DNA from: Candidatus Aminicenantes bacterium
GTDB lineage: Archaea; Nanobdellota; Nanobdellia; Woesearchaeales; JAFCCF01
NCBI GenBank assembly: GCA_017610325.1
Contig: JAFCCF010000001.1
Coordinates: 12,950 to 76,949 of the forward strand
DNA length: 64,000 nt
Direction: 5' to 3'
Every line of letters begins with the position of its first letter. Position 1 is the stretch's first letter. The notes below the pieces were generated by a model. It did not search any database and was not told the origin of the DNA. It saw only the letters and a list, made by a program, of their open reading frames with translations. Shown piece after piece: positions 36,318 through 64,000 of the stretch. The position numbers and the translations under genes are program-made.

Positions 36318-36443
36318 CTTAACAGGGTGTTAAAGCAGGACCAGTAACACAGGTTATCGCACCGAAGTGAATTTTCTCTTTGATACAAATTAACTTTGGC
36401 TTAACATACTCCTTCTTTTTTTTATGCATAGTTAATAAATATA

Positions 36444-38536: not shown

Positions 38537-38553
38537 TTTTGGTTTCTAGCGAG

Positions 38554-39978: not shown

Positions 39979-40049
39979 CATGTATTTAAGAAAAGCACAG
40001 ATAATATATATTCTTATCGGCAACCACCAGAAAACCCAATAAATTACTT

Positions 40050-47603: not shown

Positions 47604-50585
47604 ATGTCAAAAAAAGGACAGATTACACTATTTATGGTATTAGGGTTAGTTATTTTGTTCATCTTTGGCTTTGTTCTTATTCTAAGCAATAGTTCTACAG
47701 ATACAACTGAGGTTGAAGAGATATATGCGGATTTTCTCAAGAGTGTTCCAGTTAAGGAATATGCGACCCTGTGCATTGGTGAGGCAACAAAAGAAGGTCT
47801 GAGGCTGCTCGGCAACCAGGGCGGTAAAATCTATAATCACCAGGCAAATGCAACCAGTGTTGCACTAGCACCAATCTATCATTTAAATCCGCAGCCAAAA
47901 CCAATCGCATATGGTTATTATGTAATTCCTTACAATATAAGTGGCAGATGGTACAATGTGTCGTTTGGCATAAAGGATCGCATATCATACCCTTTTACAG
48001 GAGCGCAGAATTACCCTTATATTGACCTTATCCAGAAAAAGAATGTATCGCTTCTTGTGGAACCAAACCTGCTTATACCAACAGAAGACCCGTTCCTTCC
48101 ATTTTCAAAGAAACACCCTCGCAGGTCATTTGGCTACCTGAACCAGTTATGCGATTGCGAGGGTCTTAACAAGCCAGGAAGCAATGTGGCAAGCTGGAGC
48201 TGTGAAACATATGACTGTGAATATGACCTTAGTATGAACCTGCTCCCTGTCAGGAAATCAATGCAGGATTATCTGCAGTTGTATATCAAGAACAAGACAT
48301 TAGAATGCTTGAACATCTCTATTTTTAGGGGATATAATATTAAGGTGGGAAAGCCAGTAGTAAGCTCTGTAATCGGCGATACAGATGTATCAGTGCATGT
48401 TAACCTGCCGCTATTAATAAATGTGTCTGGCAAGGTTTACACAGAGACATTATACTTCTATAAAAATGAAAAAGTCAGGCTCAAGCTTATACATGAGCTT
48501 GCCACCCGTTTGATTAGGGATGATGCAAAAAACATATTCTTTGTTCCAGAGGTTCATACAGATTATCTGCAGGACTGCAGGCTGATTCAGGGCTCTACAA
48601 AATGCCTGCGAGATGGCATGAGTGTCACACGCATAAGAGACCCTGGCACCAGCACAGAAGTAACAGACAGGTATGGGCATGACAACACTTTATATTATTA
48701 TAATGGAAGGTTTGCAGATATAATCAACATAACAGACACAGAATCTGAGCTTGACGGCAAGCCATATTCTTTTTTCTATGCAATTGAGAACAGAAGACCG
48801 GCTTTGGACCTGATGCATGAAACAGAAGGCAGTAATTATGATTCCCTGTATGACTTTGTTGTTTATGAGGGAACTGAACTGCTGCTTGAGCCGTGGGGAT
48901 TTGACCCAGATGGAGATTCTTACGGGGTATGCAAGAGAAACGAACAGGATTGCATGGATTACACTTACCAATATACTGGCTGGAAAGCAGAGTATGAGCA
49001 GGACTTTATCTGGGACAGCTCAGGAAATATTACAGGTGTCTGGCTGACTGAAGCGCACAACCCACAATCAATGAACTTTACACTTACAAACCGGTTTGAC
49101 CCGCACAAGCACAATGACCCATATATATCTGAAAGATTTTTTTCAGATTATCAAGCACAACAGAAATTTACCTGCAGATACCCTTCTGCTTATCCTATAC
49201 TTTCATCTATTTGTTCAGATTACGGTAATAAATGGGAAACATCAAAAGCATACACCCAGACAAACCGCGTTGCAAACTACACAACAAACAGCTCAGATGT
49301 AGGGCCGCATGTTGTTAATATTACAATTATAGATAACAATGGCTTAATGGATTGGCAGTTGATAAGGATACTAGTGTATAATGTGATTGGGCCAGGACAC
49401 CCAGGCACAGATGCCCAAGCAATGACTCCTAACAAGATTGAAAATATCCGCGCTTCGGTTGAAGACCCATACACATTCAAGATTACACCCCTAAACACAA
49501 GGATAGATGGAACAACACACTATACCTGGAAAGACTATGATGAATCTCCAAACCCGCGTAAGTGGGGTCCGTTTGCAGACAGCAATGGCTATGCTGTACA
49601 GCAACTGTTGAAAAACACCGATAATCCAATAGGCATATTCACTAGCACGGGAACCCACAACATAAAGCTTGCGATAACAAACCCATTAGTGATTGCCACC
49701 TTTAATGTTGAGGTATACAATTGCCTGCCATACAGGAACCCAAACTCAGCACCATACCCTTTCAACAGGTTTGCATATGATTTATTTACTGATGATAATA
49801 TTCCAAGCACCCCTGGCTTTGATCCTGAGAAAGACTTTCTTGCAGATCATATATGCTGCAGTGGCATTGGCACTGCGCCAGGCGGCACTATTTGGGGTAC
49901 GCTAAAGTTTGGTGGGCTCCCTTGTTATACTTTTCATGTGCCAGAAACCTGCGGTCCGCCAGGCAACCAACCAATACCCCCAGCAGACCTTGTTGTCAGG
50001 TCAGTCTCAGGCAAGCAGCTCCAGCACATAGCTGAAAGACCAAGTGGAATAGGCGCAACCACTACTTCACCTTCAAATGCAGTTTATGTAAGAACATTTA
50101 CCCAAGCATGCAGTGGCAGCAGGGGAAATGCATGTTCAGGAACCCCCATAGATGATTGGAGGGTCAAGTTTGATTGCGACACCAGAACACCAATCAACAC
50201 ACATAAACAAGAATCTTGTCAGGGTATATTTGGAACAGCAACACAGTATAATACATGTATGAATGATGTCAAGACAACAGGAAAGCCATCAGCTTCAACA
50301 ACATTCCCTGCAGATACAAGTCAATGTCATTTGTTTGATGCTGGTGAGAGCTGGGAAAAAAATGTGCTTGGAACAGGTAATGGTATTTGCCATAAGGAAT
50401 ACAAATGCACAAAAAACCCTGGCGCAGGTGACGGCTACAAAAATCCAGGCACCTCCACCCCATCTGCCCCATATACTCATCGATGTCAAGCTGGGTGCAG
50501 TAATGGGGGCTGCACAGCAGCAATTAACTGCGTACAGTGCCCAACTAAATGTATTCCGCAGAGCGGCGATGATGTGTGCATTTAA
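47604..50585 (+). CDS. large Cys-rich extracellular protein with class III (archaeal prepilin-like) signal peptide
   Basis: 993 aa. N-terminus MSKKGQITLFMVLGLVILFIFGFVLIL has basic residues, G-Q, then a hydrophobic helix, as in type IV pilin-like signals. The rest is a Cys-rich, sequon-rich ectodomain. Confidence 0.7.
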   Translation: MSKKGQITLFMVLGLVILFIFGFVLILSNSSTDTTEVEEIYADFLKSVPVKEYATLCIGEATKEGLRLLGNQGGKIYNHQANATSVALAPIYHLNPQPKPIAYGYYVIPYNISGRWYNVSFGIKDRISYPFTGAQNYPYIDLIQKKNVSLLVEPNLLIPTEDPFLPFSKKHPRRSFGYLNQLCDCEGLNKPGSNVASWSCETYDCEYDLSMNLLPVRKSMQDYLQLYIKNKTLECLNISIFRGYNIKVGKPVVSSVIGDTDVSVHVNLPLLINVSGKVYTETLYFYKNEKVRLKLIHELATRLIRDDAKNIFFVPEVHTDYLQDCRLIQGSTKCLRDGMSVTRIRDPGTSTEVTDRYGHDNTLYYYNGRFADIINITDTESELDGKPYSFFYAIENRRPALDLMHETEGSNYDSLYDFVVYEGTELLLEPWGFDPDGDSYGVCKRNEQDCMDYTYQYTGWKAEYEQDFIWDSSGNITGVWLTEAHNPQSMNFTLTNRFDPHKHNDPYISERFFSDYQAQQKFTCRYPSAYPILSSICSDYGNKWETSKAYTQTNRVANYTTNSSDVGPHVVNITIIDNNGLMDWQLIRILVYNVIGPGHPGTDAQAMTPNKIENIRASVEDPYTFKITPLNTRIDGTTHYTWKDYDESPNPRKWGPFADSNGYAVQQLLKNTDNPIGIFTSTGTHNIKLAITNPLVIATFNVEVYNCLPYRNPNSAPYPFNRFAYDLFTDDNIPSTPGFDPEKDFLADHICCSGIGTAPGGTIWGTLKFGGLPCYTFHVPETCGPPGNQPIPPADLVVRSVSGKQLQHIAERPSGIGATTTSPSNAVYVRTFTQACSGSRGNACSGTPIDDWRVKFDCDTRTPINTHKQESCQGIFGTATQYNTCMNDVKTTGKPSASTTFPADTSQCHLFDAGESWEKNVLGTGNGICHKEYKCTKNPGAGDGYKNPGTSTPSAPYTHRCQAGCSNGGCTAAINCVQCPTKCIPQSGDDVCI

Positions 50586-50856: not shown

Positions 50857-51003
50857 ATGAAGGAACGGATTACAATCACTATTGATAAAAAATTTCTTAA
50901 GTGGTTAGATGAAAAAGTCAAGGCAAGAGTCTTTGCAAATAGGTCTCATGGCTTTGAATTTTTGATACAAAAGAAAATTGAGGGAGAAAATGAGGAAAAG
51001 TAG
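50857..51003 (+). CDS. small ribbon-helix-helix (CopG/Arc/MetJ-like) DNA-binding protein, unannotated in ORF track
   Basis: 48-aa ORF MKERITITIDKKFLKWLDEKVKARVFANRSHGFEFLIQKKIEGENEEK. Beta-strand ITITID, then helix, then the RSHGFEFLI helix, which is the RHH pattern. It overlaps the ATG (50990) of the giant adhesin gene in another frame. Confidence 0.5.
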   Translation: MKERITITIDKKFLKWLDEKVKARVFANRSHGFEFLIQKKIEGENEEK

Positions 51004-54000
51004 TGGATTTACTTATTTTGCGATTATTTCACTAGTTTTTATTATCTTTAACTCTTATCCTATTCTCGCAGATGGTGAATGCTGTGCAAATCCTTTGGCA
51101 ACAGATATCTGGTGTGTTCCTGGGACATCTGGGGCACCTGTAACTCAGGTTCTTTGCTGTTCAGATGCACTTTTTAGCAGCTTCTGGGACACAAGCCAGC
51201 AATATGCCTCTGTTCCTGACAGTGAAAATAATTGCATAAGCAACTTTTATGATGCTGGTCCAAGCCCTGACTGCACCACAACTAGTAATGCCTGGGTTAA
51301 TACAATGTGTTTCCAAGGTTCTACAACAAGTACGACCACCACCACGCTGGCAACATCTTCCACATCAAGCACAACAACAACCCTTGGTTCAACCACATCT
51401 TCCACTATTAGTTCCACAACAACGATAAGCATAACCTCAACAAGTTCCACATCAACTTCGTCTACCACCACCACACTATGGCTGTACGAGGTCTGCGACA
51501 ATGGCATTGACGACGATGGCAATGGCAGGATTGACTGCGCTGATGGCTATTGTCTTGCAACAAATGCGGTTTGTACCCCTGGGATTTCAGGTAGTAAATG
51601 CTCATGGACAACAAATAGTGGGTCCACTTACAGGTGTTGTGCTTTTTCCAGTGACTGTGATAATGACAACTATGACGAAACATGCGGCGAATGCCCATGC
51701 ATAGTTTTAGCAGAAGCACCTTCCAGCCTCGCTGTTGCACATCAATCTGGCTGGAATTTCAGGCTTACCTGGTTAGTGAGTTGCACAGCAGGAGTCACGT
51801 TTGATGTTTATAGGTGCGAGGGCATTGGCTGTAACCCAATCCTTAAGAGGAATTCTGCACCAGTAACTAATATGTATTTCACAGATACAATCCAGAAAGC
51901 AAACACAGGATATTGTTATGAAGTAAGGGCAAATTATGGGGGTATCCAAGTAAGGTCTAATATTGTGTGCCAAACTTCTGGAGATAGAATCTGCCTGGAT
52001 AATCCGCAGGGCGGGGAATTCTGCGAGACAGCAGTAACACCTACGAAGAGGACCAGATGCGATTCAAGCAACCGCAAGATAGAGGTAGAGGACTGTTTGG
52101 TGGATTATGGTTATGATTATAGGTGTTATGGCCCGTATGGCCAGGGTAGAGAGACAAAGTGCGTACAATATTCTGGCTGCTGGCGCTGTAATTACCTTCT
52201 TGAATTTTTTGGTAACCCATCATACTCAATGGTTTCATATCTTGATGGCATAGAGCTTAAGCAGACACTCTGCAAGGATTATGAATTCTGTTACTATGAT
52301 TCAACTCCAACAATCGCAAACGAGTACATTGACTGCAGTGTTGTTACTGCTGGCAATGGCTGTTATGAATATAATTCAAGGCAGGCATGCGAACAATCAA
52401 ATTTGCAGGATTCGCCTTTCAACAACCGCTGCTTGCAGAGAAACTGTACTTGGAACTGGATATCACAGGAGCTTGGAACCGGAGTGTGCATTGAACAGGA
52501 TGTAAATCTTCAGAAGTGCGAGCTATGTACCCCAGACTTTGTTGCTGGAGATGCTTCACCAAATAAGGTATTTAATCTGTGTGATGTAGCCACATGCAAA
52601 TTATATGGTGAATGTTATCCAAAGGATATTGATAAAGATGGCACGCTGAAAAATTATAATGCACTGGGCCTCACCCAGAACGAAGAGTGTATATCAAAAT
52701 CAAGGGTTTCCTGCGAGGACTTTGGGCAGCAGGAATGCATTGCAACACCATCAGATGGCCAGAGCGGTTCTCAGGCAGTGGCAGTGGATGCAGCTTATCA
52801 AGACCCGAATGACAGGACAACGCGAATTAGCGGCACACACCAGCTGAAAAGAACAAGTTATGATTATTTTGAGTTCGGGGTTTGTGCATATCGGGGCAAC
52901 AGGTGCTTCAAGGACGCAGATAATACAACCACATCTGACCCCAATCCATTGGACATGACCCCACCAATGACAATCATTGACAATGGCCTTGTGCTTGGAA
53001 CACTACAGCTTGCTGTGCAGGTTGTAGATGAAAAGCCAGCAGGCACAGTATGCTCGCCTGCAAGTAATTGTACCGGTCCTCTGGCACTTTACACATGCAT
53101 TGTTAATTCAACCCCTACCCAGGACAACTGTTATCCAACTGATTCTGTTACAATTGATTCAAATGGAATTGGAATCATCGATAATTATATTGGCTATGGC
53201 AATGGCACATACAAGATATTTTATTATGCAGAGGATAATGCAAACAACCTTGAAGAAATCAAATATATTAATGTAACCATTGACAGGGACCCGCCATCCA
53301 TTGACCTGGATTATTTTGTTCTAAGGTCAAATTCTGCGCCTTTCAATGACAGTAATGTTACTATGTTTATCACCACGGACCAGATTGCAGTGTGCAATGA
53401 CCGCTTCTACACCTCACCATCATCTTATCGATCAAGGCTGAATAGCAGCAACGGGGCATTCTTTGAGGTAAACTACACCAGCCTCTTTGATGGTTATTAC
53501 AATTACTTTATCTCGTGCATTGATGGGTTTGGAAACAACAGAACACTGGACACATACATTAGGGTTAATGCAGATGACCGGATTAATACAACCTATCCAA
53601 ATGGTACAATTGATACTACAAGCCCCACTTTGATTATTTCAACAAACAGCCAGGCAACAGAGTGCGTCTACAAGCTCGCAGACCAGGACTGGTCAGATGC
53701 AATACAGTTTGATGTTGGGACAGAAAGCAGTTCACGCACTTATTGGAATTATTCCAAGCAATTAACTGGCCTTGCAGACGGAAGATACACTTATGATGTA
53801 AGGTGCACAATCAATCTGCAGCCATCATATGACCAGATAAGCTTTGTTGTGGACACTGCATCTCCAACCACCTTGGCAATTGACGGGTTAGGCCTTCCAT
53901 ATGATTTTATTGAGCCAAAGAGCTCCCATCGGGTCTACCTGCGGTGCAATGACCAGCCAGCTGGCGGCTTTGGCTGCATGAATACATATTACTGCAAGGG

Positions 54001-57000
54001 CTCTTTCCAGTGCACGCCCGACACAATTTACACAACAGGTCCAATTGAGATTATCGGCGAGCCTTTCTTCTGCTTTTTCTCTGAGGAGAACAGCAGGACC
54101 CACCTTGGTCAGACAATGGGTGGCAAGAACGAATCTGTTGTATGCAGGACCCTAATTACAGATAACATGGACCCACACTTATTTGTGGATATACTGGCTG
54201 AGCTTGCCTTAAATGAATATTTCCTCACAAACCAGAACCCGCTTACAGTAACCGGAACAATAATCGATTATACTTATGACATGTGGGACAGTGATGCTAC
54301 CTGGATAAGCAGTCTATCAAATAATGAGTATGTTGAAGACAATTACGTGTTCACAGATTATAACCTCAGCGCAAACTTCACATTCACTGGTGAATCTGTT
54401 GAGTTTTGGTTTGCGCATGTAAATTCAAGCAAATATTATTATATTTATATTGATAGTTCTGATGACTTCCCAAACAAACAGAATATATACCTTTACAAAA
54501 AAGGCCAGACAGCGCCAGTTGTACCAGGTCAGGAAAACATTAATGTGCTTGAAAACAAAGAGATTATCCTAAATATCACAATTAAGTTAGGCAACTTTGA
54601 GGTTATTCTTAACGGCGAGGCACTGCCTGGTGGGGCAATCACATTTGCATTTGGAGATGCTAGCTATGGCGCAGGAAAAATTGGCGCAAAGGCCCATGCA
54701 AGCAGCACAATTGACTTTGAGGACTTGGTTATCCTTGAATCTGATATGGCTTCCAATAATGAGATTAGGTTAGTGGTGAATGGCGAGACACTGACTACCG
54801 GAGTTTTGGAAAGCAATTTAAGGAACTTTCAACAGTTCAGCTTGGATTCTAACTTAATTGGTGATTATTCAAACTGTAAACAGTGCAGCAGGCTCCAGTT
54901 AACTGCAATTGACAGAGCAGGTAATGATTATGTTAAATATTATCATGTGTATCTTGACCAGAACGGTCCATTCTTTGACAACACATCTATTAAAATGTAT
55001 GATTTTGAGGGAAGTGAAGCCCAGAATGTGGAATACGGAGAAAACACCACTCTGAAAATAAGGGTTTATGATACAGACAATTACAAGGCAACAGTAAATG
55101 TAACAAATGTGACACTTGAGTTTAACAACCATAATTATACACTTGTTAATATAAGCGAACAGTTGCATGACACTTACTGGGAATCTATGGTTGTGACTGA
55201 TGACCTAGGGGTTGGAAGTTATATTCTAACATTTTATGCAAGAGACGCCCTGAACAACATAAACAGCACAATTATTTCAAGAACATTGAATATAACTGAT
55301 ACAAGGGCGCCTTCCTTTGATGTAGTTATATATAATGATTCAGCTAGGACAAACCAGGTTGGTGTTGTAACAATGGGTGCTTATTATGCAAAGATGAACT
55401 CAAGCGAACCATCATTAATAAGGCATTTTAACCTCACGCCACTGGGCTTTACTGCAGAAAACATATTTGTAAACTGTGATAATCGCGGACAATATGCCAC
55501 CAGCTGGCAATGTTCATTTTCAATTGATAATGTGAATTTCCTGGATAAAAACGAGAGATTGCTTAATTTCAAGTTCCTGGCAACAGACAACCATGGAATA
55601 AACCAGACGCAGATTCAGCCAGGATATATAATCCTAAACACAACAGGACCGCAGCCGCCAATATTTGACCCAAACATAAACCACGGTAGTTCGCCAAATA
55701 CCTACGCAAACACATATCCAGACTACCTTACTTCTTACAGTGATGAGTCAACAGACGTGTTCTACACAAACAAGAGCAAGTTGTTTATCACAGGGGCAAG
55801 TGCCCAGTCAAACCATGTAATACTATCAACGCAGGTTGCAGAGAACCAGCCAAATGATGTGATATACACTCAGCAGACAGTCACTAAGCTAGCAGATACA
55901 GCAAACCTGAACTCAGCAGGATTTGGTGTTTCAGTTGCAAATGTTGGCGCAACTGAGATTAAGTTTGAGGGAATTGATTTAACAAGCGATCTAATTAGCA
56001 CTGCTGGTAGCTACCTCATGTTCACAAACCACGACAGGAAAACATACGAGCATTACAAAGAATATTATGCTGTCACAAACAGTATGTATGATGGTTACCT
56101 GACCACAATCTACCTGGCCTCCCCTTTAGAAGGTGCAGTTTCCAAGGATGAGCTTATCAATGTTTATGACAAGCAAAGGTCCAGGGACACGTTTGCCCTA
56201 TACTCAGCCGAACTTACAGACGGCGTAAACAAATTGTTTGCAAAAGGCGTTAACCAACTGGGAAACAAGGGCAGGGAATCAGTAATCCATAACATCTTCT
56301 TTGATGACGAATCTCCGGATGATGTGTTCAGCATACCCTACAGGAACTGGACAATTGGTGATTATTATACAAACATTACCTTCGAAGTGAGGGATAGAAA
56401 TCCAAGTTCAGGCATCAGGCTGATTGATACAAACATAGCCCTGAGATATACGAACACAACTGGAACATATACTCTATACACCAACACAATCCCTTATCTC
56501 CTAGATGCAACATATGCGAATGGCACCTCAAAGGACGGCAATTATAATTATTCATTGCTTGTGTTTGACACAGGGGAGTTCATAAGCACAAGCTACTATC
56601 CTTTGCCAGATGGAAAATATGATGTTACTATATTTCTTAGGGACAGGGCTCATAACTACCTCGCAGGGCAATGGCAGTTCTGGATTAAGCTTGGTGTGCC
56701 TGATATGCCAAACATATCCCTAGCTGACAACGCAGCGTTTACTGCCATAGATAATCCAAATGACATGAATGCCGTTGACGATAGGTTCTTCATAAACCAG
56801 ACCACAGGATATGGTGTGTTGATTGAATATCCAGTAACAGAGACAAACATTGACATAATCTACATCAACATGAGCCCACATGATGCAAAGATAACATGCA
56901 GCAAGGCAACCAATACAAGGTTTGAGTGCAGCTTTGACAATGCACTTGTTGCAAACAAGGATTATGAGATAATGTACACCTCACAAAGGGTGCTGAGCAA

Positions 57001-60000
57001 TGGAAGTAATGGGCCCAAGGTAAACCGCACATTTTACATCACAACTGATAACATTAGCCCCCAGGTAACAGCTATGCAGTTCTTTGATGTGTCGCGCGTA
57101 AACAACACAAACTTTGAGCTGAATATCACCGGATTAAATGAGATGTATGATGTTCTGGTTAAAGTATACCTCGGTAATATCACGCTGGATGAAATTATAA
57201 CCTCTGACAGCTTGATACAGTTCAACAACCTTAACATACCTGATCTTGCTGATATGGGATATAACTTGAAAGCAATCCTGATTGACCAGGCAGGAAATTC
57301 ATTCCCAAAATCAGGCATCCTGACAATTGATAACACTGCACCTGGCGTGAGCGTAACTTCTGTTGCACCAGTAACTAAGGGCATAATGAATACTGGCCTG
57401 ACAAGCTGGATAACTGGCGATGATAATGTTTCTATCAAGGGTGTATATGCTGATGCAAGCATTGATTATATCTGCTACTTTAACCCACATTTTGCACTGT
57501 TTAGCTGTAGCAGGAATGTAAACACAGCAACCATACACCAAGGTAATAATACCTATCAATTGTATGCAAGGGTCTTTGGCCAGGAAAATGGCTCTGATGT
57601 ATATAATAACATAACAATCACCGCAGTTGACAGGGCTGGAAACAGCAGAAGCAGGAGCATAAACCTAACTGCAGATAGGTCACCGCCTATTGTGAATCTG
57701 ACAGCACCCAGGGTTGGAATCACAAGCATACTGACTCCAACAATTGTTGTGTCTACAGACGAAGTATCAAACTGTAATCTGTCATACAATACTATATCTA
57801 ACGCAGCAATGACCGGAGCGCCAAACAACACGCACGTGTACACTGTTACAACCAGTTTGGCAACTAACCAGAACAACACATTCAGGGTAGAGTGCAGGGA
57901 CCAGCTAGGCAACATTGGCGAGGAAACATACTACATTTATGCAGATACCATAACTCCAATAATCAACGGTGTGACTGTGACACCAGGTTTCCTTAACCAT
58001 AGCTCAACTAGCTTTAGCATGTATGTTGTGTACAGTCAGGTAGTTGAGCCATACCTAACAGTAAACCTTAATGAGTTGTCAATATGTAGGTATGGCACAA
58101 GCAATATATACAATACAATGCAGAAATTCCCTGGATATAATGAGTCACAGTATAGCATACAGCACAATTCTCTTTCAATTAGGAATATGTTGGTTGAGAA
58201 CCAAACAACTTACTTATATGTGGCATGCGAGGACCGGGGCGGAAACGTTGCAAATGTTTATAGGGTTGGAATCAAGCTTGACCCTGATGCGCCAATTATG
58301 CCGTTTAACCCCCAACCAACAGGATTTGTTACAACAAATGAGCCAAATGTGTCTGTGAACACGTACAGGTTAGCAAGATGGTGTGGAATAACATCTATAA
58401 ATGGTGGTGCACCAATCAACATTTCACTTGAATGGAAGGGGCAGGATACAACTACTGGAATCCAAACATATGCCCGCATATTACAGGGATTGCAAGAAGG
58501 CCAGACATACACTATCGAGATAAGCTGTGCAGCAAGTCCGCGCGGCTCAGTTACATTCAGCTTTACGATTGACACAGAAGGCCCAGCAACGATTATTGAG
58601 GTCCAGTCAAGCTCATACAAACCAAATATATATGTGATGTTTAATGAGGGTGTCACGATTAAGAGCGCCATCTTGACAGGCCCTTCTGGCACAGTTACAG
58701 TCCAAGGTCAGCAGCACACTACCAGTAATTACACATATGTCCCTATTCAGAATCTGACAAACACAACATACACGTTCAGTGTTGTTGCAACTGATTCAAG
58801 GGGCAATTCAAAGGAAACAACAAAATTATTTACCCTTCCAATTGATTACCTTAACATAACCCTTATAAAGCCAATCGATGGCTGGATAAATGAGACAACC
58901 TTTGAGGTTGTAATAGAAACAGACAGGAGAGCAATGTGCAGGTATGACCGAAATTATCGCAACTATACTGGAATGAACAAGGACTTCACAACAAGCAATA
59001 GAATAACCCACAAGATAGATGATTTTAATTACAGCGAGACCAATAAGCTTATCTTTGTAACATGCAGGGACCTGTACGGGGCAGCCACACCTGTGCCAAA
59101 ATTAATAGAATTCATGTATGATCCAGTTGCACCAGTAATAACTACAAGTGTAAGCCCAAGAACAGTTGCAGAATACCTTGTATTAAATGGAAGCTCGCAG
59201 TTATTTACAAAACTCACGATTGATTCAGATAAGCCCGCATTCTGTAGATACAGTCGCACCTCTGACGTGTACGAACTAATGGAACACCAGACAAAGAACA
59301 AGTCAAGGCACCACGAAGTTTACATAACTGGCTTGGTTGATGGCATGTCTTATAATTATAATGTGCGATGCATAAGCCTGGCAAATGTTGTAAGTAATTA
59401 TGAAGTTGTATCATTTGATGTTGACATAACACAGCCAGTGCAGATCATAAGCGTGACACCTGCATCAGGTTCATACCTTGGCAGCGGCTCAGGAGTAAAA
59501 CTAAATGTATCAACCAATAAGCATGCAGACTGTAGGGTAAACTCATCAAGCAATGGCCTGAGTTATATTTCTTCGCTGAGCTTAAACAAGGTTAACCATT
59601 GGTTTAACCTGCCAACACTTACAAGGGAGGGCGAGTTTGACTTTAATATTTGGTGTATGGATATTAACCGGGATACTGTTTCTGCTGTTGTAAGGCTTAT
59701 ATTTGACAAGACAGCCCCTTCAGACCCAGAGATTGAATATGTGTATGCCTGCACAGACAACGAGATTAAGGCAAGGGTCAAGTCAGAGGATAACCTGACT
59801 GGCATAGTTGGTTACAATTATTCGCTTGTTGACGATACAAATGGTTCAGACTTGATAGAGCACAAGTACGAGAGCGGTGATGATGATGAGATTATAAGGA
59901 TTAGATATGATGATTATGGTAGGCTGGAGCTTAACACGAGCCACTATTATGTACTGAGTGTGTGGGCTAAGAATGGCGCTGGCTTGTACAGCAGAGAGGT

Positions 60001-61543
60001 TGAATCAAGCACATTCAAGGTTGACCCAACAGACACTGACTATTGCCCATACCAACCGCCAACTAACTGCTCAGACCACTGTGATGACAACCTCAAGAAC
60101 TGCGGCGAGACTAGCAAGGACTGCGGCGGCACATGCGTGTCAGAAGGAAAGAAGTGCCCAAATACAAAATCCTGTGTAATTGATTCAGACTGTGAGTCAG
60201 GTTACTGCAACCCAACAACCAAGAAGTGCGAGACCTCGCTGTGCGAGAACGAAGAATTGGATATAACCAACCTTGAGACTGATGAGGACTGCGGCGGCAG
60301 CAATTGTCCTGCTTGCGGTATTGGCGAGAACTGTAAGGTAGATAATGATTGTGAGGGAAACAATTACTGTGATAGCAATACAAAAAAATGTGTAAGTCCG
60401 TCTTGTAGTGATAATAAGATGAACATACATGATGGGCAAGCAGAGACAGATCGTGATTGCGGCGGTCCATGCGTACTAATTGGCAAGCTATGTGCAAACG
60501 GTCTTGGCTGTGCAGATGACACTGATTGCGAATCAGGATTCTGCGTGCCAATAACTAACTTATGCGCGCAGCCAACGTGCACCGACGGTTATAAGAACCA
60601 GGATGAGACCGGCCCAGATTGCGGCGGTAGCTGCGTTGCAGAAGGCAAGAAATGCCTAGATGGCGAACAATGCACATCAAAAGAAGATTGTATCAGCGAT
60701 TACTGCGGTTCAGGTTACTGCAGGGCAGAACCTGGCCAGGATTCAGACGGAGATGGAATGCCTGATGAATGGGAAGACAAATACCAGCTTGATAAAAATG
60801 ATCCAACTGATGCAACCTGGGACAATGATGGGGATGGTCTGACAAACCTTGAAGAATACAGAAAGCAGACAAATCCACTTGATCAGGACACAGATGGTGA
60901 TAATTATAATGATGGTGATGAAATTACCAACAGAACAGATCCAACTGACCCTAATTCATACCCAAAAAAATCAAACCTATTCAGAACAATTCTGCTTATT
61001 ATTATATTCTTGATACTGCTCGGAGCTGCAGGTTACCTTGGATATATTGAACTAAGAAAGATGGGGGGGATTGGCAAGAAGAAAATGCCACCACCAAGAG
61101 GATCACCACAGCAGAGGACACTCAACCTGATGAAAGGTACGATGCCAGGTGTACCAACACAACCACGGCAACCAAGACCAATGCAGCCAAAAACACCAGC
61201 GCCCCTTATGCCGTTCCAGATTCAAGCAAGAAAGCAAAAAGCCACCATTGTAAAGAAAAAAGACAGGAGAAAACTGTTTGATTCATTTTCTGGAGCAGAA
61301 CCAATAAAACCAGTTGTTAAGGAGATACCTAAACCAACTGAAGAACCTAAGAAAGAAGGGGTTGGGTGGATTACACTCAAGGCTAAAAAACCGTCAAAGA
61401 AGCTGTCAAGGAAGCCTATAGAAGGGGATGTCTTTGCAAGACTAAAAAAGATAGCAGAAGAAGGTAAAACCCCCAAAACTGGCAGAAAAAAGGATGTTTT
61501 TAAGGAATTGAGCAAACAAAAGCCAAAAAAGAAAAAGAGGTAG
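50990..61543 (+). CDS. giant (about 3518 aa) membrane-anchored surface adhesin-like protein
   Basis: The ORF tool starts at TTG 50978; ATG 50990 gives MRKSSGFTYFAIISLVFIIFNSYPILA|DGE, a Sec signal peptide. Downstream are a Cys-rich module, an S/T linker (51322-51480) and a very long beta-rich region with many NxS/T sequons. Four about 55-aa 8-Cys repeats lie at 60090-60735, and Asp-rich DxDxDG Ca-binding-like repeats at 60737-60960. A C-terminal TM helix is at 60978-61050, followed by a basic/Pro-rich cytoplasmic tail. Confidence 0.8.
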   Translation: MRKSSGFTYFAIISLVFIIFNSYPILADGECCANPLATDIWCVPGTSGAPVTQVLCCSDALFSSFWDTSQQYASVPDSENNCISNFYDAGPSPDCTTTSNAWVNTMCFQGSTTSTTTTTLATSSTSSTTTTLGSTTSSTISSTTTISITSTSSTSTSSTTTTLWLYEVCDNGIDDDGNGRIDCADGYCLATNAVCTPGISGSKCSWTTNSGSTYRCCAFSSDCDNDNYDETCGECPCIVLAEAPSSLAVAHQSGWNFRLTWLVSCTAGVTFDVYRCEGIGCNPILKRNSAPVTNMYFTDTIQKANTGYCYEVRANYGGIQVRSNIVCQTSGDRICLDNPQGGEFCETAVTPTKRTRCDSSNRKIEVEDCLVDYGYDYRCYGPYGQGRETKCVQYSGCWRCNYLLEFFGNPSYSMVSYLDGIELKQTLCKDYEFCYYDSTPTIANEYIDCSVVTAGNGCYEYNSRQACEQSNLQDSPFNNRCLQRNCTWNWISQELGTGVCIEQDVNLQKCELCTPDFVAGDASPNKVFNLCDVATCKLYGECYPKDIDKDGTLKNYNALGLTQNEECISKSRVSCEDFGQQECIATPSDGQSGSQAVAVDAAYQDPNDRTTRISGTHQLKRTSYDYFEFGVCAYRGNRCFKDADNTTTSDPNPLDMTPPMTIIDNGLVLGTLQLAVQVVDEKPAGTVCSPASNCTGPLALYTCIVNSTPTQDNCYPTDSVTIDSNGIGIIDNYIGYGNGTYKIFYYAEDNANNLEEIKYINVTIDRDPPSIDLDYFVLRSNSAPFNDSNVTMFITTDQIAVCNDRFYTSPSSYRSRLNSSNGAFFEVNYTSLFDGYYNYFISCIDGFGNNRTLDTYIRVNADDRINTTYPNGTIDTTSPTLIISTNSQATECVYKLADQDWSDAIQFDVGTESSSRTYWNYSKQLTGLADGRYTYDVRCTINLQPSYDQISFVVDTASPTTLAIDGLGLPYDFIEPKSSHRVYLRCNDQPAGGFGCMNTYYCKGSFQCTPDTIYTTGPIEIIGEPFFCFFSEENSRTHLGQTMGGKNESVVCRTLITDNMDPHLFVDILAELALNEYFLTNQNPLTVTGTIIDYTYDMWDSDATWISSLSNNEYVEDNYVFTDYNLSANFTFTGESVEFWFAHVNSSKYYYIYIDSSDDFPNKQNIYLYKKGQTAPVVPGQENINVLENKEIILNITIKLGNFEVILNGEALPGGAITFAFGDASYGAGKIGAKAHASSTIDFEDLVILESDMASNNEIRLVVNGETLTTGVLESNLRNFQQFSLDSNLIGDYSNCKQCSRLQLTAIDRAGNDYVKYYHVYLDQNGPFFDNTSIKMYDFEGSEAQNVEYGENTTLKIRVYDTDNYKATVNVTNVTLEFNNHNYTLVNISEQLHDTYWESMVVTDDLGVGSYILTFYARDALNNINSTIISRTLNITDTRAPSFDVVIYNDSARTNQVGVVTMGAYYAKMNSSEPSLIRHFNLTPLGFTAENIFVNCDNRGQYATSWQCSFSIDNVNFLDKNERLLNFKFLATDNHGINQTQIQPGYIILNTTGPQPPIFDPNINHGSSPNTYANTYPDYLTSYSDESTDVFYTNKSKLFITGASAQSNHVILSTQVAENQPNDVIYTQQTVTKLADTANLNSAGFGVSVANVGATEIKFEGIDLTSDLISTAGSYLMFTNHDRKTYEHYKEYYAVTNSMYDGYLTTIYLASPLEGAVSKDELINVYDKQRSRDTFALYSAELTDGVNKLFAKGVNQLGNKGRESVIHNIFFDDESPDDVFSIPYRNWTIGDYYTNITFEVRDRNPSSGIRLIDTNIALRYTNTTGTYTLYTNTIPYLLDATYANGTSKDGNYNYSLLVFDTGEFISTSYYPLPDGKYDVTIFLRDRAHNYLAGQWQFWIKLGVPDMPNISLADNAAFTAIDNPNDMNAVDDRFFINQTTGYGVLIEYPVTETNIDIIYINMSPHDAKITCSKATNTRFECSFDNALVANKDYEIMYTSQRVLSNGSNGPKVNRTFYITTDNISPQVTAMQFFDVSRVNNTNFELNITGLNEMYDVLVKVYLGNITLDEIITSDSLIQFNNLNIPDLADMGYNLKAILIDQAGNSFPKSGILTIDNTAPGVSVTSVAPVTKGIMNTGLTSWITGDDNVSIKGVYADASIDYICYFNPHFALFSCSRNVNTATIHQGNNTYQLYARVFGQENGSDVYNNITITAVDRAGNSRSRSINLTADRSPPIVNLTAPRVGITSILTPTIVVSTDEVSNCNLSYNTISNAAMTGAPNNTHVYTVTTSLATNQNNTFRVECRDQLGNIGEETYYIYADTITPIINGVTVTPGFLNHSSTSFSMYVVYSQVVEPYLTVNLNELSICRYGTSNIYNTMQKFPGYNESQYSIQHNSLSIRNMLVENQTTYLYVACEDRGGNVANVYRVGIKLDPDAPIMPFNPQPTGFVTTNEPNVSVNTYRLARWCGITSINGGAPINISLEWKGQDTTTGIQTYARILQGLQEGQTYTIEISCAASPRGSVTFSFTIDTEGPATIIEVQSSSYKPNIYVMFNEGVTIKSAILTGPSGTVTVQGQQHTTSNYTYVPIQNLTNTTYTFSVVATDSRGNSKETTKLFTLPIDYLNITLIKPIDGWINETTFEVVIETDRRAMCRYDRNYRNYTGMNKDFTTSNRITHKIDDFNYSETNKLIFVTCRDLYGAATPVPKLIEFMYDPVAPVITTSVSPRTVAEYLVLNGSSQLFTKLTIDSDKPAFCRYSRTSDVYELMEHQTKNKSRHHEVYITGLVDGMSYNYNVRCISLANVVSNYEVVSFDVDITQPVQIISVTPASGSYLGSGSGVKLNVSTNKHADCRVNSSSNGLSYISSLSLNKVNHWFNLPTLTREGEFDFNIWCMDINRDTVSAVVRLIFDKTAPSDPEIEYVYACTDNEIKARVKSEDNLTGIVGYNYSLVDDTNGSDLIEHKYESGDDDEIIRIRYDDYGRLELNTSHYYVLSVWAKNGAGLYSREVESSTFKVDPTDTDYCPYQPPTNCSDHCDDNLKNCGETSKDCGGTCVSEGKKCPNTKSCVIDSDCESGYCNPTTKKCETSLCENEELDITNLETDEDCGGSNCPACGIGENCKVDNDCEGNNYCDSNTKKCVSPSCSDNKMNIHDGQAETDRDCGGPCVLIGKLCANGLGCADDTDCESGFCVPITNLCAQPTCTDGYKNQDETGPDCGGSCVAEGKKCLDGEQCTSKEDCISDYCGSGYCRAEPGQDSDGDGMPDEWEDKYQLDKNDPTDATWDNDGDGLTNLEEYRKQTNPLDQDTDGDNYNDGDEITNRTDPTDPNSYPKKSNLFRTILLIIIFLILLGAAGYLGYIELRKMGGIGKKKMPPPRGSPQQRTLNLMKGTMPGVPTQPRQPRPMQPKTPAPLMPFQIQARKQKATIVKKKDRRKLFDSFSGAEPIKPVVKEIPKPTEEPKKEGVGWITLKAKKPSKKLSRKPIEGDVFARLKKIAEEGKTPKTGRKKDVFKELSKQKPKKKKR

Positions 61544-61556
61544 GCTTCGTTCTAAA

Positions 61557-62042
61557 ATGAAAAAGGGGCAGGTAACTGGGCAGGTTTTCATCTACATCAT
61601 TTCAGCAGTTATTATTGGATTTGTGCTTTTGTTTGGAATCCAGGCAGTGCTTAAGATACTGAAGACTGGCTGTGATGTTGAGATGATAGAATTTAAGCAG
61701 GGGCTTGAGGATAGGTTTAAGAAAGGCATGCAGCATGGTGTTGTTAATGACAGGCCAATTAGCGTACCTTCATGCTCTAATTTTGCAGAGGTTTGTTTTG
61801 TTCAGCTTGACAAAGAAGCCCCACCCTCCTTGTATTCTTCAAGGCCGCTTATATATAACAGCTGGGAGGATAAGGTTGAGGCGAATGTCTTCTTTATTGC
61901 TGATGGTCCTGAATTATTTATGTATGTTAAAGGTTTAGAAGTAAAGAACCCATTCTGGTTATGTGAACCTGTGGTCAGCGGAAGGATAAGCACGCTGCGC
62001 TTCATTGGTCAGGGAGATGGCATACTAGTAGACCAAATCTGA
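61557..62042 (+). CDS. pilin-like protein with class III signal peptide
   Basis: 161 aa. MKKGQVTGQVFIYIISAVIIGFVLLFGI: KKGQ followed by a hydrophobic helix. Confidence 0.55.
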   Translation: MKKGQVTGQVFIYIISAVIIGFVLLFGIQAVLKILKTGCDVEMIEFKQGLEDRFKKGMQHGVVNDRPISVPSCSNFAEVCFVQLDKEAPPSLYSSRPLIYNSWEDKVEANVFFIADGPELFMYVKGLEVKNPFWLCEPVVSGRISTLRFIGQGDGILVDQI

Positions 62043-62046
62043 GAAA

Positions 62047-63138
62047 ATGCTTAAAAAAAGGGGTGCGATTGAGATACAGTTTAATTGGATTTTTGTTCTT
62101 ATAATCGGAGCCCTGATTCTTGGATTCTTTGGCAAGATAGTATATAACCAGATACAGCTTTCAAAGGAGGAAACAGATATAGCAATCCAGACAAAGCTAA
62201 AAACCATAATCAAGAATGCCAAGGAAAGTACTGGTTCGGTCTTCGAGGTTAACCTAAAGAGGACAGAGATAAGGTATAATGATTGCACAGAGGGCCTGGA
62301 AACAGGAGGTACCCTTACTCCAATCAAGATAACCACAGCATTTGCTCCGAATCTTGTCAAAAGCGCGACAGGTAAGGTATATTTCTGGGCAGTTGACTGG
62401 AACATGCCATATCGTGTTGAAAATTTCATATTTATCACATCCCCTGATATAAAATATGTGGTTGTCAACACCAGCGAAGATACAGAAAAGTATGCGCTCG
62501 AGATATACAATGGAACACAGGTGATAAGCCTCCCTGACAGGTTCAACAAGCTCTTCATGGATTTTGATGAAGCAAAAAACCTGCAACCAAACAATTACTA
62601 CAAGACCCGCTTTATCTTCTTTGATGTTTTGGATTTCCATGCTTTTAACCCGCAGAACAGCTTTTTCCTGGATGATGCCATTGATGTATCTGCTGTGCTG
62701 ATAAATCCAACCTCAGGTAACCTGGACGGTTATGGTGATGTGGAATATCGCGTGAAAAAAACAACATCATCCACTCTAGAGTATGTTGGCGACTCAAAGT
62801 ATCTTGCAAGGGCATCTATGTTTGGTGCTATAATCTCTGAGAATATCAGCCATTATGATTGTGTGATGGAAGAGGCAATAGAGCGCCTTAACTTAGTAAG
62901 CTTGGTTTACAAGAAGCGCACAGAAAATTTACAAACCCAGCTTCCAGTTGGTGGTGACTGTACTGATTATGGTATATACCCACTTGCAGCCGGCCATCTT
63001 CAGAATATCATTGATATGTCAACCATTTTTAAAACAGACAATTTTGTCAGCATCTACACAGATGCATTTTCAGACGCAGGAAGCGTGAAAACACTTAATC
63101 ATCTCGCAATCATGAAGAGCTGTCCTTTGGTGTATTAA
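62047..63138 (+). CDS. pilin-like / pilus-associated protein with class III signal peptide
   Basis: 363 aa. MLKKRGAIEIQFNWIFVLIIGALILGFFG: a KRGA cleavage-like motif with Glu at +3 and a hydrophobic helix. Confidence 0.55.
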   Translation: MLKKRGAIEIQFNWIFVLIIGALILGFFGKIVYNQIQLSKEETDIAIQTKLKTIIKNAKESTGSVFEVNLKRTEIRYNDCTEGLETGGTLTPIKITTAFAPNLVKSATGKVYFWAVDWNMPYRVENFIFITSPDIKYVVVNTSEDTEKYALEIYNGTQVISLPDRFNKLFMDFDEAKNLQPNNYYKTRFIFFDVLDFHAFNPQNSFFLDDAIDVSAVLINPTSGNLDGYGDVEYRVKKTTSSTLEYVGDSKYLARASMFGAIISENISHYDCVMEEAIERLNLVSLVYKKRTENLQTQLPVGGDCTDYGIYPLAAGHLQNIIDMSTIFKTDNFVSIYTDAFSDAGSVKTLNHLAIMKSCPLVY

Positions 63139-63162
63139 CACAACAAAATTCCTGGCGGAATT

Positions 63163-63666
63163 TTGAGTGCTCAAAAACAGAAGGTTTTTGACATGCGCAA
63201 GTCACAGATAAAAATGGGAGAGACAATCGCGGTCTTGATAGTCTTCTTCATACTTCTGCTTGTGGGCATGGTATTCTATGCAAAGTTTAAAGGAGATAGC
63301 ATAGAAAGGAAAAGGGAAGAGATGGATATCATGAACACTATTGAGATTGCAATCAAGGCATCGCGGCTGCCAGAACTGCAGTGCACAACAGCAGGCATAG
63401 AATGCGGCAACACAATTGACCTGCTGAAGCTCCAGGCCCTTGAGGAGATAATAAAATATGACCTTATTGGAAACCCATACTATGACATGTTCTATGCAAG
63501 CGAGATTGTTATTGAGCAGGTTTATCCAACAACAAACAGCTGGATACTCTATAACTTTTCAGGCGGCAAGACATCTGTGCAGCCAGTTTATGTCCCAGTT
63601 ACAATACATGATGTTATTACAGATGAATATAGCTTTGGATTCATAAGAGTTGGTGTTTATGTCTAA
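63163..63666 (+). CDS. pilin-like protein (class III signal-like N-terminus); start possibly Met at 63193
   Basis: 167 aa. ...MRKSQIKMGETIAVLIVFFILLLVGMVF, a basic motif followed by a hydrophobic helix. Confidence 0.45.
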   Translation: MSAQKQKVFDMRKSQIKMGETIAVLIVFFILLLVGMVFYAKFKGDSIERKREEMDIMNTIEIAIKASRLPELQCTTAGIECGNTIDLLKLQALEEIIKYDLIGNPYYDMFYASEIVIEQVYPTTNSWILYNFSGGKTSVQPVYVPVTIHDVITDEYSFGFIRVGVYV

Positions 63667-64000
63667 AAAGAGCCAGATGGAAATATTAGGATTGGCGGTA
63701 GTGATAGTGCTTATTTTGCTAGGTTTTCTGCTATATCTTAGATTTGGAATGAATGGCAATAATGCTGACTTTGAGGAGTTTGCTGACCCAAAAATGGCAG
63801 CATCAACACTCAATGCAATGCTCAAGACAACTGTTTCCTGCGATTCAAAAAAATATTCAATCACCGAATTGCTGCAGGATTGCTATAACTGGAAGATGGT
63901 TTATTGCGGAGGGCAGGATTCATGCACATTTGCCGAAAACAGCCTGGGAATCATGCTCGATACTTCGCTCAAGCAATGGGGTAAGGGTTACTGGTTCCTT
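63663..64000 (+). CDS. pilin-like protein, 3'-truncated by window end
   Basis: MSKKSQMEILGLAVVIVLILLGFLLYL... then a Cys-containing ectodomain. Open to the end of the window. Overlaps the previous gene by 4 nt. Confidence 0.45.

Follow-up and report, generated by a model that had tools for sequence, protein, structure and literature searches.

Quartets of minor pilins or pseudopilins are known from bacteria, namely GspH-I-J-K of type II secretion and FimU-PilV-PilW-PilX, together with the PilY1 adhesin, of type IVa pili. The four archaeal genes described here, referred to as A to D, resemble these quartets in being adjacent, single-copy and mutually unrelated, with B as the large member (compare GspK), with one member (A) that lacks the Glu in the helix, and with a very large adhesin gene next to them. 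By analogy, A-D would prime or cap a filament. They differ from the bacterial quartets in archaeal lineage and signal type, no similarity between the two was found by sequence or by Foldseek, and the giant adhesin at this locus has a C-terminal membrane anchor of its own.

The processed Epd pilins of M. maripaludis carry the sites RAQI, KGQV, KGQV, KGQL and KGQI (PMC4371748; PMC2910488). The peptidase EppA requires Gln at position +1, and substrates with Gln there are not accepted by FlaK in Methanococcus (PMC4371748). Both methanogens and DPANN have the Epd-like “system 1”, in which minor pilins are numerous (bioRxiv 10.64898/2026.04.22.720090). The locus analyzed by us shares with Epd/system 1 (EpdA-E, EppA) a [KR]-[G/A]-Q-[IVL] site with +1 Gln and an early Glu, as well as many putative minor pilins, large adhesins beside the pilins and a very short candidate major pilin. 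The Epd combination of +1 Gln with an early acidic residue (QxSxExxxL) is found in the quartet except that B has no +1 Gln and A no Glu. Further differences are the frequent Ser at −1 and the position of the Glu, which is +3 or +6 here compared to +5 in Epd. Sequence homology of A-D to Epd, DUF361 or Class_IIIsignal could not be detected with Pfam and NCBIfam at E <= 1. The Epd genes form an 11-gene cluster with an ATPase, two platform genes and EppA, whereas the operon reported here has approximately 20 genes, murein hydrolases included, and none of these assembly genes in or near it.

Pilin heads fused to functional bodies have been described for the modular type IV pilins PilB and PilC of Streptococcus sanguinis (PMC8179133), and the Bas system assembles the sugar-binding proteins of Sulfolobus, which have class III signals (PMC2910488). 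The present operon is comparable to modular pilins and the bindosome in that heads are fused to a 993-aa body and to Amidase_3, VanY/M15, SLT and glucosaminidase bodies. It differs in that murein-hydrolase bodies occur in a murein-less organism and in the far higher number of modular members per operon.

Castelle et al. 2021 and Vigneron et al. 2022 described a “Module 98” of families specific to Pacearchaeota and Woesearchaeota as well as large lytic-transglycosylase proteins, and took the presence of murein-degrading domains and of giant extracellular proteins to indicate bacterial hosts. Pili or pilins are mentioned 0 times in the two papers, and neither is the A-D gene order. Like the 51 families of Module 98, the families of the operon are lineage-restricted and mostly hypothetical.

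Gene organization of the locus

At its end, the window (the whole stretch of 64,000 nucleotides that was analyzed) contains four pilin-like open reading frames that all point in the same direction on the + strand (Table 1), as the first-pass annotation had stated. That annotation regarded them as a cluster of four joined by 4-nt overlaps. The measured junctions are spacers of 13 nt between the giant adhesin gene and A, 4 nt between A and B, and 54 nt between B and C, followed by one 8-nt overlap between C and D; nor does the cluster end with its fourth gene, since at least 13 further pilin-headed genes continue the series in the operon. For gene C an alternative TTG start exists upstream at 63163; public gene calls take 63193. 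The full-length gene D was taken from a near-identical contig, L083 (positions 1746-2228), which has 6 mismatches in 2087 nt (99.7% identical) to positions 61914-64000 of the window.

Table 1. Positions of the discussed features in the window. The arrow (↓) marks the predicted processing site.
Feature	Position	Strand	Description	Head and predicted processing site
S24/S26-like peptidase gene	36444-36986
1172-aa surface protein (family cl11)	44019-47537	+	first gene of the operon; 6.7% Cys
993-aa pilin-headed protein (family cl9)	47604-50585	+	N-terminus MSKKGQITLFMVLGLVILF	MSKK-G↓Q-ITLFMVLGLVILFIFGFVLIL; G5↓Q6 (nt 47616-47621)
48-aa ORF	50857-51003	+	overlaps the start of the giant gene
Giant adhesin	50978-61543	+	3521 aa; Big_13, Big_3_3, TSP3_bac domains
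Gene A	61557-62042	+	161 aa, pilin-like; starts MKKGQVTGQVFIYIISAV	MKK-G↓Q-VTGQVFIYIISAVIIGFVLLFG; G4↓Q5 (nt 61566-61571)
Gene B	62047-63138	+	363 aa, largest of the quartet; starts MLKKRGAIEIQFNWIFVLIIGA	MLKKR-G↓A-IEIQFNWIFVLIIGALILGFF; G6↓A7 (nt 62062-62067)
Inverted repeat, B-C spacer	63144-63165	.	9-bp stem, CAAAATTCC-TGGC-GGAATTTTG
Gene C	63193-63666	+	157 aa, pilin-like; starts MRKSQIKMGETIAVLIVFF	MRK-S↓Q-IKMGETIAVLIVFFILLLVGMVFY; S4↓Q5 (nt 63202-63207)
Gene D	63659 to past 64000	+	114 of 160 codons in the window; starts MSKKSQMEILGLAVVIVLIL	MSKK-S↓Q-MEILGLAVVIVLILLGFLLYL; S5↓Q6 (nt 63671-63676)

Judged by gene content and order, A-D are the conserved core of a surface operon of about 20 genes. 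Approximately 80 related species keep the order A-B-C-D, and the relatives are named Woesearchaeota or Nanoarchaeia. In related loci A was found upstream in 53 out of 75 cases, C downstream in 57 out of 70 and D downstream in 64 out of 70, and the giant gene lies upstream of B in 55 out of 64. Chance open reading frames were therefore rejected as an explanation of A-D, as the orthologues are conserved and syntenic in dozens of related loci.

Directly after D, 48 out of 62 loci have one to three tandem copies of a short pilin of about 90 aa (family cl1), which we regard from its position and copy number as a candidate major pilin. At least ten pilin-headed open reading frames, one of them an Amidase_3, follow D in L083, and the 90-aa pilin there has a faint match to Flp1_like (E = 0.055). 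Across the loci, the distal families of the operon contain the murein-hydrolase domains Amidase_3, VanY/M15 and SLT, and also glucosaminidase modules.

Very large pilin-headed adhesins had been proposed for this locus. This holds for the 993-aa protein, whose N-terminus at 47604 is as annotated and which is pilin-headed, with K at −2 in 91% of its family, S/G/A at −1, Q at +1 in 70% and T at +3 in 75%; it has no Pfam match. It does not hold for the 3521-aa and the 1172-aa protein. The giant adhesin has a signal peptide of the Sec type as well as repeats of the Ig-like and TSP3 kinds, is anchored at its C-terminus by a transmembrane segment, and reaches into the cytoplasm with a Lys-rich tail; transmembrane-like segments lie at residues 11 and 3330. 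The 1172-aa protein has a Sec-type signal or anchor without a pilin head and no Pfam or NCBIfam match, and its orthologues, found at the equivalent position in related loci, show short h-regions followed by poly-Pro.

Signal sequences

The N-termini of A-D consist of two to three basic residues, then G/S, then Q or A, followed by a hydrophobic helix of about 20 residues. This corresponds to a class III signal (K/R at −2, a small residue at −1, and the h-region after the site), with KKG↓Q in A, KRG↓A in B, RKS↓Q in C, KKS↓Q in D, and likewise KKG↓Q in the 993-aa protein. The pattern is kept across 55-83 orthologues per family, the best-conserved residues of each family being [KR]-[G/A/S]-Q and the early Glu. 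In the alignments of the A-D families position −2 is always K/R, and position −1 swaps freely among G, A and S, as would be expected of a peptidase site.

The families differ in detail. Gene A (55-62 orthologues) has a nearly invariant Q5, with Q+1 in about 75-90%, the G/A/S interchange at −1, and a helix without an acidic residue. In gene B, which has no Q+1, QFNWI is invariant, Glu is found at +3 and the C-terminus reads SCPxIY. Q+1 and E+6 are present in 100% of the scored members of family C, and Q+1, E+3 and G+6 are invariant in the alignment of family D. The fraction of the majority residue is 0.57-0.67 over residues 1-35 compared to 0.40-0.49 over the remainder of the A-D families. Profile comparisons by hhalign between A and C and between C and D match over the first 34-41 columns only (probability 92-93%). 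At the level of sequence, the type IV pilin superfamily shows just this kind of head-only likeness between families.

To account for the background occurrence of such heads we counted them inside and outside the conserved operon. Inside, 670 out of 731 open reading frames have an N-terminal hydrophobic helix, with [KR][GAS] abutting the helix in 592 and [KR][GAS]Q in 311. Outside, 75 out of 357 have such a helix, 19 with [KR][GAS] and 4 with [KR][GAS]Q. The enrichment of the operon over its flanks is significant for both motifs (Fisher p = 6e-31 and 1e-13, respectively). The Cys counts of A-D (4, 4, 2 and 6) are all even, which fits extracellular disulfides.

A strict FlaFind-like pattern, [KRDE][GA][ALIFQMVED][ILMVTAS]x3, matches the 993-aa protein and none of A-D, which deviate by Ser at −1 (C and D), by a G, E or K somewhere between +2 and +5, and by charged residues at +3 to +6. 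Of the 609 members of the operon families that have an N-terminal helix, 76 pass this pattern.

Taken together, the conservation and enrichment support the view that the N-termini of A-D behave as class III (prepilin-type) signals and not as Sec signals or arbitrary anchors. A signal of the PibD/FlaK type had been claimed; the class III head is borne out by conservation, and the FlaK specificity is not. The near-invariant +1 Gln points to a peptidase with EppA-type specificity rather than to FlaK.

Relatives and predicted structures

No pilin or class-III-signal model of Pfam or NCBIfam matched A-D, even at E <= 1, and a PDB sequence-profile search with all four family alignments returned noise only. 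Among species representatives in GTDB gene B has 136 relatives, and gene C has 1301 representatives at 50% clustering. Word-index searches yielded few homologues (12 for C and 16 for A), and the alignment underlying the model of C was shallow accordingly.

The AlphaFold model of gene B (pLDDT 88.6, pTM 0.84) has a helix of 54 residues (7-60), a β-rich domain (65-253) and a helical bundle (254-356). In the model of gene C (pLDDT 84.8), a helix of 55 residues (3-57) is followed by short helices (77-87, 95-100) and by strands 103-111, 115-121, 129-140 and 145-156, which form a four-stranded antiparallel sheet after an αβ-loop. As modeled, B and C each have an N-terminal helix of about 55 residues that runs on into a globular domain. 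This arrangement resembles that of pilins, in which the C-terminal half of an N-terminal helix of about 50 residues packs on a β-sheet domain. Foldseek against the PDB with both models found no pilin and nothing below E = 0.01 (no match below E = 0.016 for gene B). The top matches, TolB, 4zr7 and ribosomal proteins, were dismissed as chance (E >= 0.01, TM < 0.3). Because Foldseek finds no pilin, the term pilin fold refers in the case of gene C to the order of its secondary structure elements only.

Assembly machinery

Pfam scans of all larger open reading frames revealed no PilB/FlaI-type ATPase, PilC/FlaJ platform or A24 peptidase in the 64-kb window, in agreement with the first-pass annotation. 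Apart from a Polysacc_synt flippase and a PMT_2 glycosyltransferase, the window encodes no polytopic membrane proteins. The accompanying suggestion that assembly genes follow beyond 64000 did not stand: no secretion ATPase or platform gene is present in the next 5.7 kb, as covered by L083, nor in the operon of the approximately 80 related loci. When the surroundings of 80 related loci were scanned for the motif alone, no protein with a secretion-type Walker A turned up within 10 kb of them. In archaea it is normal for pilin genes to lie apart from pilB/pilC (PMC4371748), and flaI, flaJ and flaK were found in most Woesearchaeota MAGs of one study (PMC11606122). Since linkage is not obligatory in archaea, the missing ATPase and platform nearby weaken the assignment of A-D to the pilins without ruling it out.

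Potential function of the quartet

We consider it probable that A-D are type IV pilin-like proteins with the same heads and unrelated bodies, which carry class III signals and serve as minor pilins of an unlinked machinery. The short basic N-terminus and the hydrophobic helix would insert the protein in the membrane. A membrane aspartyl prepilin peptidase with EppA-like specificity could, as the motif implies, cut after G4, G6, S4 and S5 of A, B, C and D, so that the cut protein would begin with Gln, or with Ala in the case of B. A type IV filament ATPase and platform encoded at an unlinked locus might then pull these helices out of the membrane and assemble them as the core of a pilus or a short pseudopilus. 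By analogy to known filaments, A-D are most likely minor pilins, B being the large one, that make up a tip or initiation complex, because they are single-copy, syntenic and adhesin-flanked, and the short multi-copy cl1 pilin follows.

A variant of this explanation differs in the structure that is built. The class III proteins could form a short pseudopilus in the envelope, similar to the bindosome or to type II secretion, that holds or exports the hydrolases and adhesins. The many different pilin-headed proteins within one operon, enzymes included, recall the sugar-binding proteins of Sulfolobus, and A-D being single-copy also agrees with such a structure. The multi-copy cl1 pilin directly after D in 48 out of 62 loci is, however, what one would expect of a major filament subunit, and we regard the variant as rather unlikely.

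Alternatively, A-D may be unprocessed signal-anchor proteins of type II that form a membrane complex with the giant adhesin, the residues of the head serving helix-helix contacts. Each of them has one N-terminal transmembrane-like segment, and the giant adhesin, too, is held in the membrane, by its C-terminal anchor. The absence of peptidase, ATPase and platform from the window and of a secretion-type Walker A near the related loci (motif scan), the lack of matches to known pilin models and structures, and the mostly failed strict FlaFind-like pattern point in the same direction. A signal anchor does not predict, however, that K/R-[G/A/S] with an invariant Gln is repeated in more than 13 unrelated families, nor that a Glu is conserved by the cytoplasmic end of the helix. 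The motif also equals the experimentally cleaved Epd sites, and the modeled helix of 55 residues running into the globular domain resembles that of a pilin. We therefore judge this alternative to be unlikely.

That A-D are ordinary soluble proteins, secreted by Sec and cut by signal peptidase I, is highly improbable in spite of the S24/S26-like peptidase gene in the window and the Sec-type signals of the neighboring giant and 1172-aa proteins, since the h-regions of A-D measure 19-23 residues with no small-x-small c-region behind them, the conserved site precedes the hydrophobic stretch, and the AlphaFold helix, about 55 residues long, runs on into the folded domain; Sec signal peptides were thus rejected for A-D and accepted for the giant and the 1172-aa proteins.

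Returning to A-D as minor pilins, a hint towards their function arises from the modular pilins of the same operon (993-aa, amidase, VanY/M15, SLT), by which a filament or surface complex would present adhesins and cell-wall hydrolases. By analogy this suggests an organelle for attachment to, or attack on, bacteria. With more reservation we put forward the possibility of a hitherto undescribed anti-bacterial type-IV-filament organelle that would be widespread in Woesearchaeota, in which A-D would form the tip or initiation complex and the 90-aa pilin the shaft, giant Ig-like adhesins would dock the cell to the wall of a bacterium, and filament-borne enzymes would breach that wall. In this tentative picture the operon of about 20 genes is pilin-only, and its amidases, D,D-peptidases, lytic transglycosylases and ~1000-aa protein would be pilin-headed subunits.

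Woesearchaeota and Pacearchaeota belong to the uncultivated archaea of highest abundance. We know of no interpretation of their lineage-specific “hypothetical” families, which so far have been listed. A large block of these families appears here as one conserved operon of pilin heads, EppA-type sites, giant adhesins and peptidoglycan-cutting enzymes. It represents a concrete candidate for an attachment or attack machine and points to bacteria, not archaea, as targets. More than 12 new families would be added to the type IV pilins, family C alone comprising over 1000 clusters at 50% identity. As none of these families is picked up by standard HMM libraries or by Foldseek against the PDB, pilin censuses that use such tools undercount DPANN.

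Some minor observations concern the remainder of the window. Its genes for PolD, Cdc6, tRNA-intron endonuclease and FEN1 show that the organism is archaeal, and it is an uncultivated DPANN archaeon of Woesearchaeota type. A scan for promoters and terminators, with bacterial-type models that are inapplicable to archaea, gave results at chance level only; it flagged the inverted repeat between B and C as a minus-strand hairpin. The 48-aa ORF at the start of the giant gene matches RHH_1 with E = 0.0048 and 17.3 bits, which is under the cut-off of 20.5 bits, and may, with some uncertainty, encode a ribbon-helix-helix regulator.

Pilin-like N-termini

The four adjacent plus-strand genes A to D, which directly follow the gene of the 3521-aa adhesin (the giant protein), probably encode type IV pilin-like proteins with class III signals and EppA-type processing sites. 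The first-pass annotation had reported four pilin-headed reading frames, and all are present, each with exactly one TM-like segment, located at the N-terminus. Tight linkage is found as well, but not the "4-nt overlaps": the junctions are spacers of 13 nt (giant-A), 4 nt (A-B) and 54 nt (B-C), and an overlap of 8 nt (C-D). A perfect inverted repeat with a 9-bp stem lies inside the B-C spacer and may act as a hairpin in the RNA or as a binding site. No Pfam or NCBIfam match was obtained for A to D, even at E ≤ 1, and profile searches of PDB sequences with the family alignments (A1-A4) returned noise only.

Coordinates of the features discussed (window positions, or positions in related loci where marked)
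Feature	Position	Strand	Remarks
PolD DP2, DP1, Cdc6/Orc1 in a row, then AT-rich region	1140-8216	- (genes)	
AT-rich intergenic region	7461-8216		750 nt; inverted repeats 7621-7636/7729-7744 and 7791-7803/8158-8170
Radical SAM cluster	24419-41477		PqqD-like at 34840-35163
1172-aa protein	44019-47537		
993-aa protein	47604-50585		
48-aa ORF	50857-51003	+	MKERITITIDKKFLKWLDEKV...; in 393-nt gap before giant, overlaps giant start
A	61557-62042	+	161 aa, MKKGQVTGQVF...
B	62047-63138	+	363 aa, MLKKRGAIEIQFNWIF...
Inverted repeat	63144-63165		CAAAATTCC TGGC GGAATTTTG
C	63193-63666	+	157 aa, MRKSQIKMGETIAVL...
D	from 63659	+	MSKKSQMEILGL...; window ends after 114 codons
ORFs after D	L083	same	101 aa (MKKKGQGISLNVIIIAAIALIVL...), 90, 35, 114+181, 47, 241, 96, 198, 321 aa
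cl1 copies	L083:2296-2601, 2630-2902		300-1200 nt past window end
321-aa ORF	L083:6079-7044		Amidase_3, E = 1.4e-6; ~4 kb past window end
Pilin-headed murein hydrolase	L031:18084-19181		

The heads of the families read [KR]-[A/S/G]-Q-x-x-[GS]-Q-[IV]-F-[IV]-Y (A), [KR]-[G/A]-x-[IV]-E-[IV]-Q-F-N-W-I-F with QFNWI invariant (B), [KR]-[A/S/G]-Q-I-x-M-x-E-T-I-A-V-L with Gln+1 and Glu+6 in 100% of the 59 members scored (C), and [KR]-[S/A/G]-Q-M-E-I-x-G-L, whose Q, E and G do not vary in the alignment (D). Relative to the predicted processing site, position -2 is always Lys or Arg while Gly, Ala and Ser swap freely at -1, which is the pattern expected for a peptidase site. In all four families the first 35 residues are the best conserved part (majority-residue fraction 0.57-0.67 compared to 0.40-0.49 elsewhere), and profile-profile alignments of A with C and of C with D (probability 92-93%) are confined to the first 34-41 columns.

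ORFs of at least 60 aa inside the operon span were compared to those outside. An N-terminal hydrophobic helix occurs in 670/731 ORFs inside and in 75/357 outside. Among these helix-bearing ORFs, [KR][GAS] abuts the helix in 592 of 670 compared to 19 of 75 (Fisher p = 6e-31), and [KR][GAS]Q is found in 311 compared to 4 (Fisher p = 1e-13).

Processing sites of the same kind are known from the Epd pilins of M. maripaludis (RAQI, KGQV, KGQV, KGQL, KGQI); EppA substrates share an acidic residue near the start of the helix and a highly conserved Gln at +1, which EppA requires and FlaK refuses (PMC4371748). The DUF361 motif is QxSxExxxL (PMC2910488). Epd-like sites in the window are KKGQV (A), RKSQI (C), KKSQM (D) and KKGQI (993-aa protein). 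The earlier pilin interpretation of A to D is supported in part, namely for the class III, pilin-like heads, by the conserved [KR]-[small] sites and the operon enrichment. Its extension to large pilin-headed proteins holds for the 993-aa protein, which starts with MSKKGQITLF as claimed, and fails for the giant and 1172-aa families, whose signals are of the Sec type with short h-regions followed by a polar/cleavage region; the giant protein additionally carries a C-terminal anchor.

The predicted structure of B (39-sequence alignment, pLDDT 88.6, pTM 0.84) comprises a helix (7-60), a β-rich domain (65-253) and a helical bundle (254-356). That of C (12-sequence alignment, pLDDT 84.8, pTM 0.67) has a helix (3-57), two short helices and strands at 103-111, 115-121, 129-140 and 145-156.

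Operon organization

Scanning one genome per GTDB species with a degenerate pattern, we identified 136 relatives of B and took 80 loci with 10-kb flanks. Gene order was derived from our own ORF calling, which is crude and makes all counts lower bounds, and from BLAST clustering into families (cl). The conserved order is the 1172-aa family, the 993-aa family, the giant protein, A, B, C, D, one to three copies of cl1 (~90 aa), a ~45-aa peptide, then cl6, cl18, cl13, a ~100-aa protein, cl12, cl8, cl10, cl17/19/28 and cl7, and finally a cytosolic RPA-like gene marking the operon end. Upstream of B, A is found in at least 53/75 loci and the giant gene in at least 55/64; downstream, C occurs in at least 57/70, D in at least 64/70 and cl1 in at least 48/62. 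At E ≤ 1e-3, family C alone comprises 1301 representatives of 50%-identity clusters, with lengths of 150-200 aa in nearly every case.

A minority of loci (L011, L018, L030, L032) contain B-C-D but lack both A and the giant adhesin, whose place upstream is taken by small, divergently transcribed genes (clusters 21 and 23); B-C-D may thus be the minimal conserved unit. The 1172-aa and 993-aa proteins, kept at the operon head in related genomes, are large orphans without any Pfam match, the former with 6.7% Cys and repeated CxxC-rich modules. The 48-aa ORF, with a sub-threshold RHH_1 match (E = 0.0048), may encode a CopG-type regulator of the operon.

Beyond the window the operon can be followed in L083, a JGI contig with 6 mismatches in 2087 nt to window 61914-64000, where D has its full length of 160 aa. 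Nearly all ORFs past D have a basic-small-hydrophobic head, so A to D are the start of a longer series and not the whole set. Directly after D lies cl1 (~90-100 aa, in tandem), which consists of KKGQGISLNVIIIAAIALIVLVILILIFTGRIG and a small Cys-rich tail and matches Flp1_like faintly (E = 0.055); cl1 is the strongest candidate major subunit of the filament. Murein-hydrolase domains sit behind the pilin-like heads of the distal families cl8 and cl7 in loci L001-L082: among 58 members scanned we found VanY (9), Peptidase_M15 (8), Amidase_3 (5), SLT (3), 3D (2), Glucosaminidase (1) and Lysozyme_like (1). New here are the pilin families themselves, which had no annotation, and their setting, a pilin-only operon of unusual size that includes murein hydrolases with pilin heads.

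Potential function and alternative explanations

A to D would be inserted into the membrane and cleaved after the small residue, and their helices could then be extracted into a filament or pseudopilus core. Being single-copy and syntenic, with mutually unrelated bodies, adjacent adhesins and a short multi-copy pilin next to them, they might tentatively be seen as minor pilins that build an initiation or tip complex analogous to GspH-K and FimU-PilVWX. Clade-1 loci each contain at least five minor pilins and PilY-like adhesins (Makarova et al. 2016), and a 2026 preprint, which stresses the many pilins of the Epd-like "system 1", assigns this system to methanogens, Thermococcales and DPANN (bioRxiv 10.64898/2026.04.22.720090). 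As a variant of the pilin reading, A to D may build a short, bindosome-like pseudopilus.

The window contains no A24 peptidase, T2SE/FlaI ATPase or FlaJ/TadC platform, as the first-pass annotation had observed, and its sole polytopic proteins are one flippase and one PMT_2 glycosyltransferase. The suggestion that the machinery follows just past position 64000 is unsupported: a motif scan of the 10-kb flanks of the 80 loci detected no Walker A protein of the secretion type. Since pilin genes unlinked to the machinery are common in archaea (PMC4371748), this weakens the pilin case without refuting it; flaI, flaJ and flaK are reported for most Woesearchaeota MAGs studied (PMC11606122). The main rival, a complex of A to D as unprocessed signal anchors, appears unlikely to us in view of the peptidase-site pattern at -2 and -1. 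Secretion of A to D by Sec is very unlikely; Sec-type signals are those of the giant and 1172-aa families.

Murein is, to our knowledge, absent from archaea of this group, and pilin-headed murein hydrolases in such an archaeon suggest an apparatus aimed at bacterial cell walls. Large lytic transglycosylases of Woese- and Pacearchaeota have already been taken to indicate that the hosts or prey are bacterial, with no mention of pili or pilins (PMC8204110, PMC9723730). The families of A to D may be included in "Module 98", 51 mostly hypothetical families specific to Woese-/Pacearchaeota (PMC8204110).

Host lineage and neighboring regions

PolD DP2/DP1, Cdc6/Orc1, tRNA-intron endonuclease, FEN1, Hjc and TFE mark the window as archaeal. 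Homologues of B come almost all from Woesearchaeota, Nanoarchaeia or Nanoarchaeota MAGs, and several others are evidently mislabelled. Many operon-bearing contigs (among L004-L077) are deposited as "uncultured Methanosarcinales archaeon" and two as bacteria (Binatia, Dehalococcoidales), probably through taxonomic mislabelling or mis-binning.

Just upstream of the surface operon lies a dense cluster in which four B12-binding radical SAM enzymes and additional radical SAM proteins are joined by a PqqD-like protein, an NTP_transf_5 protein, a Polysacc_synt flippase, the PMT_2 glycosyltransferase and an S24/S26-like peptidase. The cluster has the appearance of an island for modifying peptides or glycans. 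The AT-rich region next to the PolD and Cdc6/Orc1 genes, with its two pairs of inverted repeats, is a plausible replication origin.
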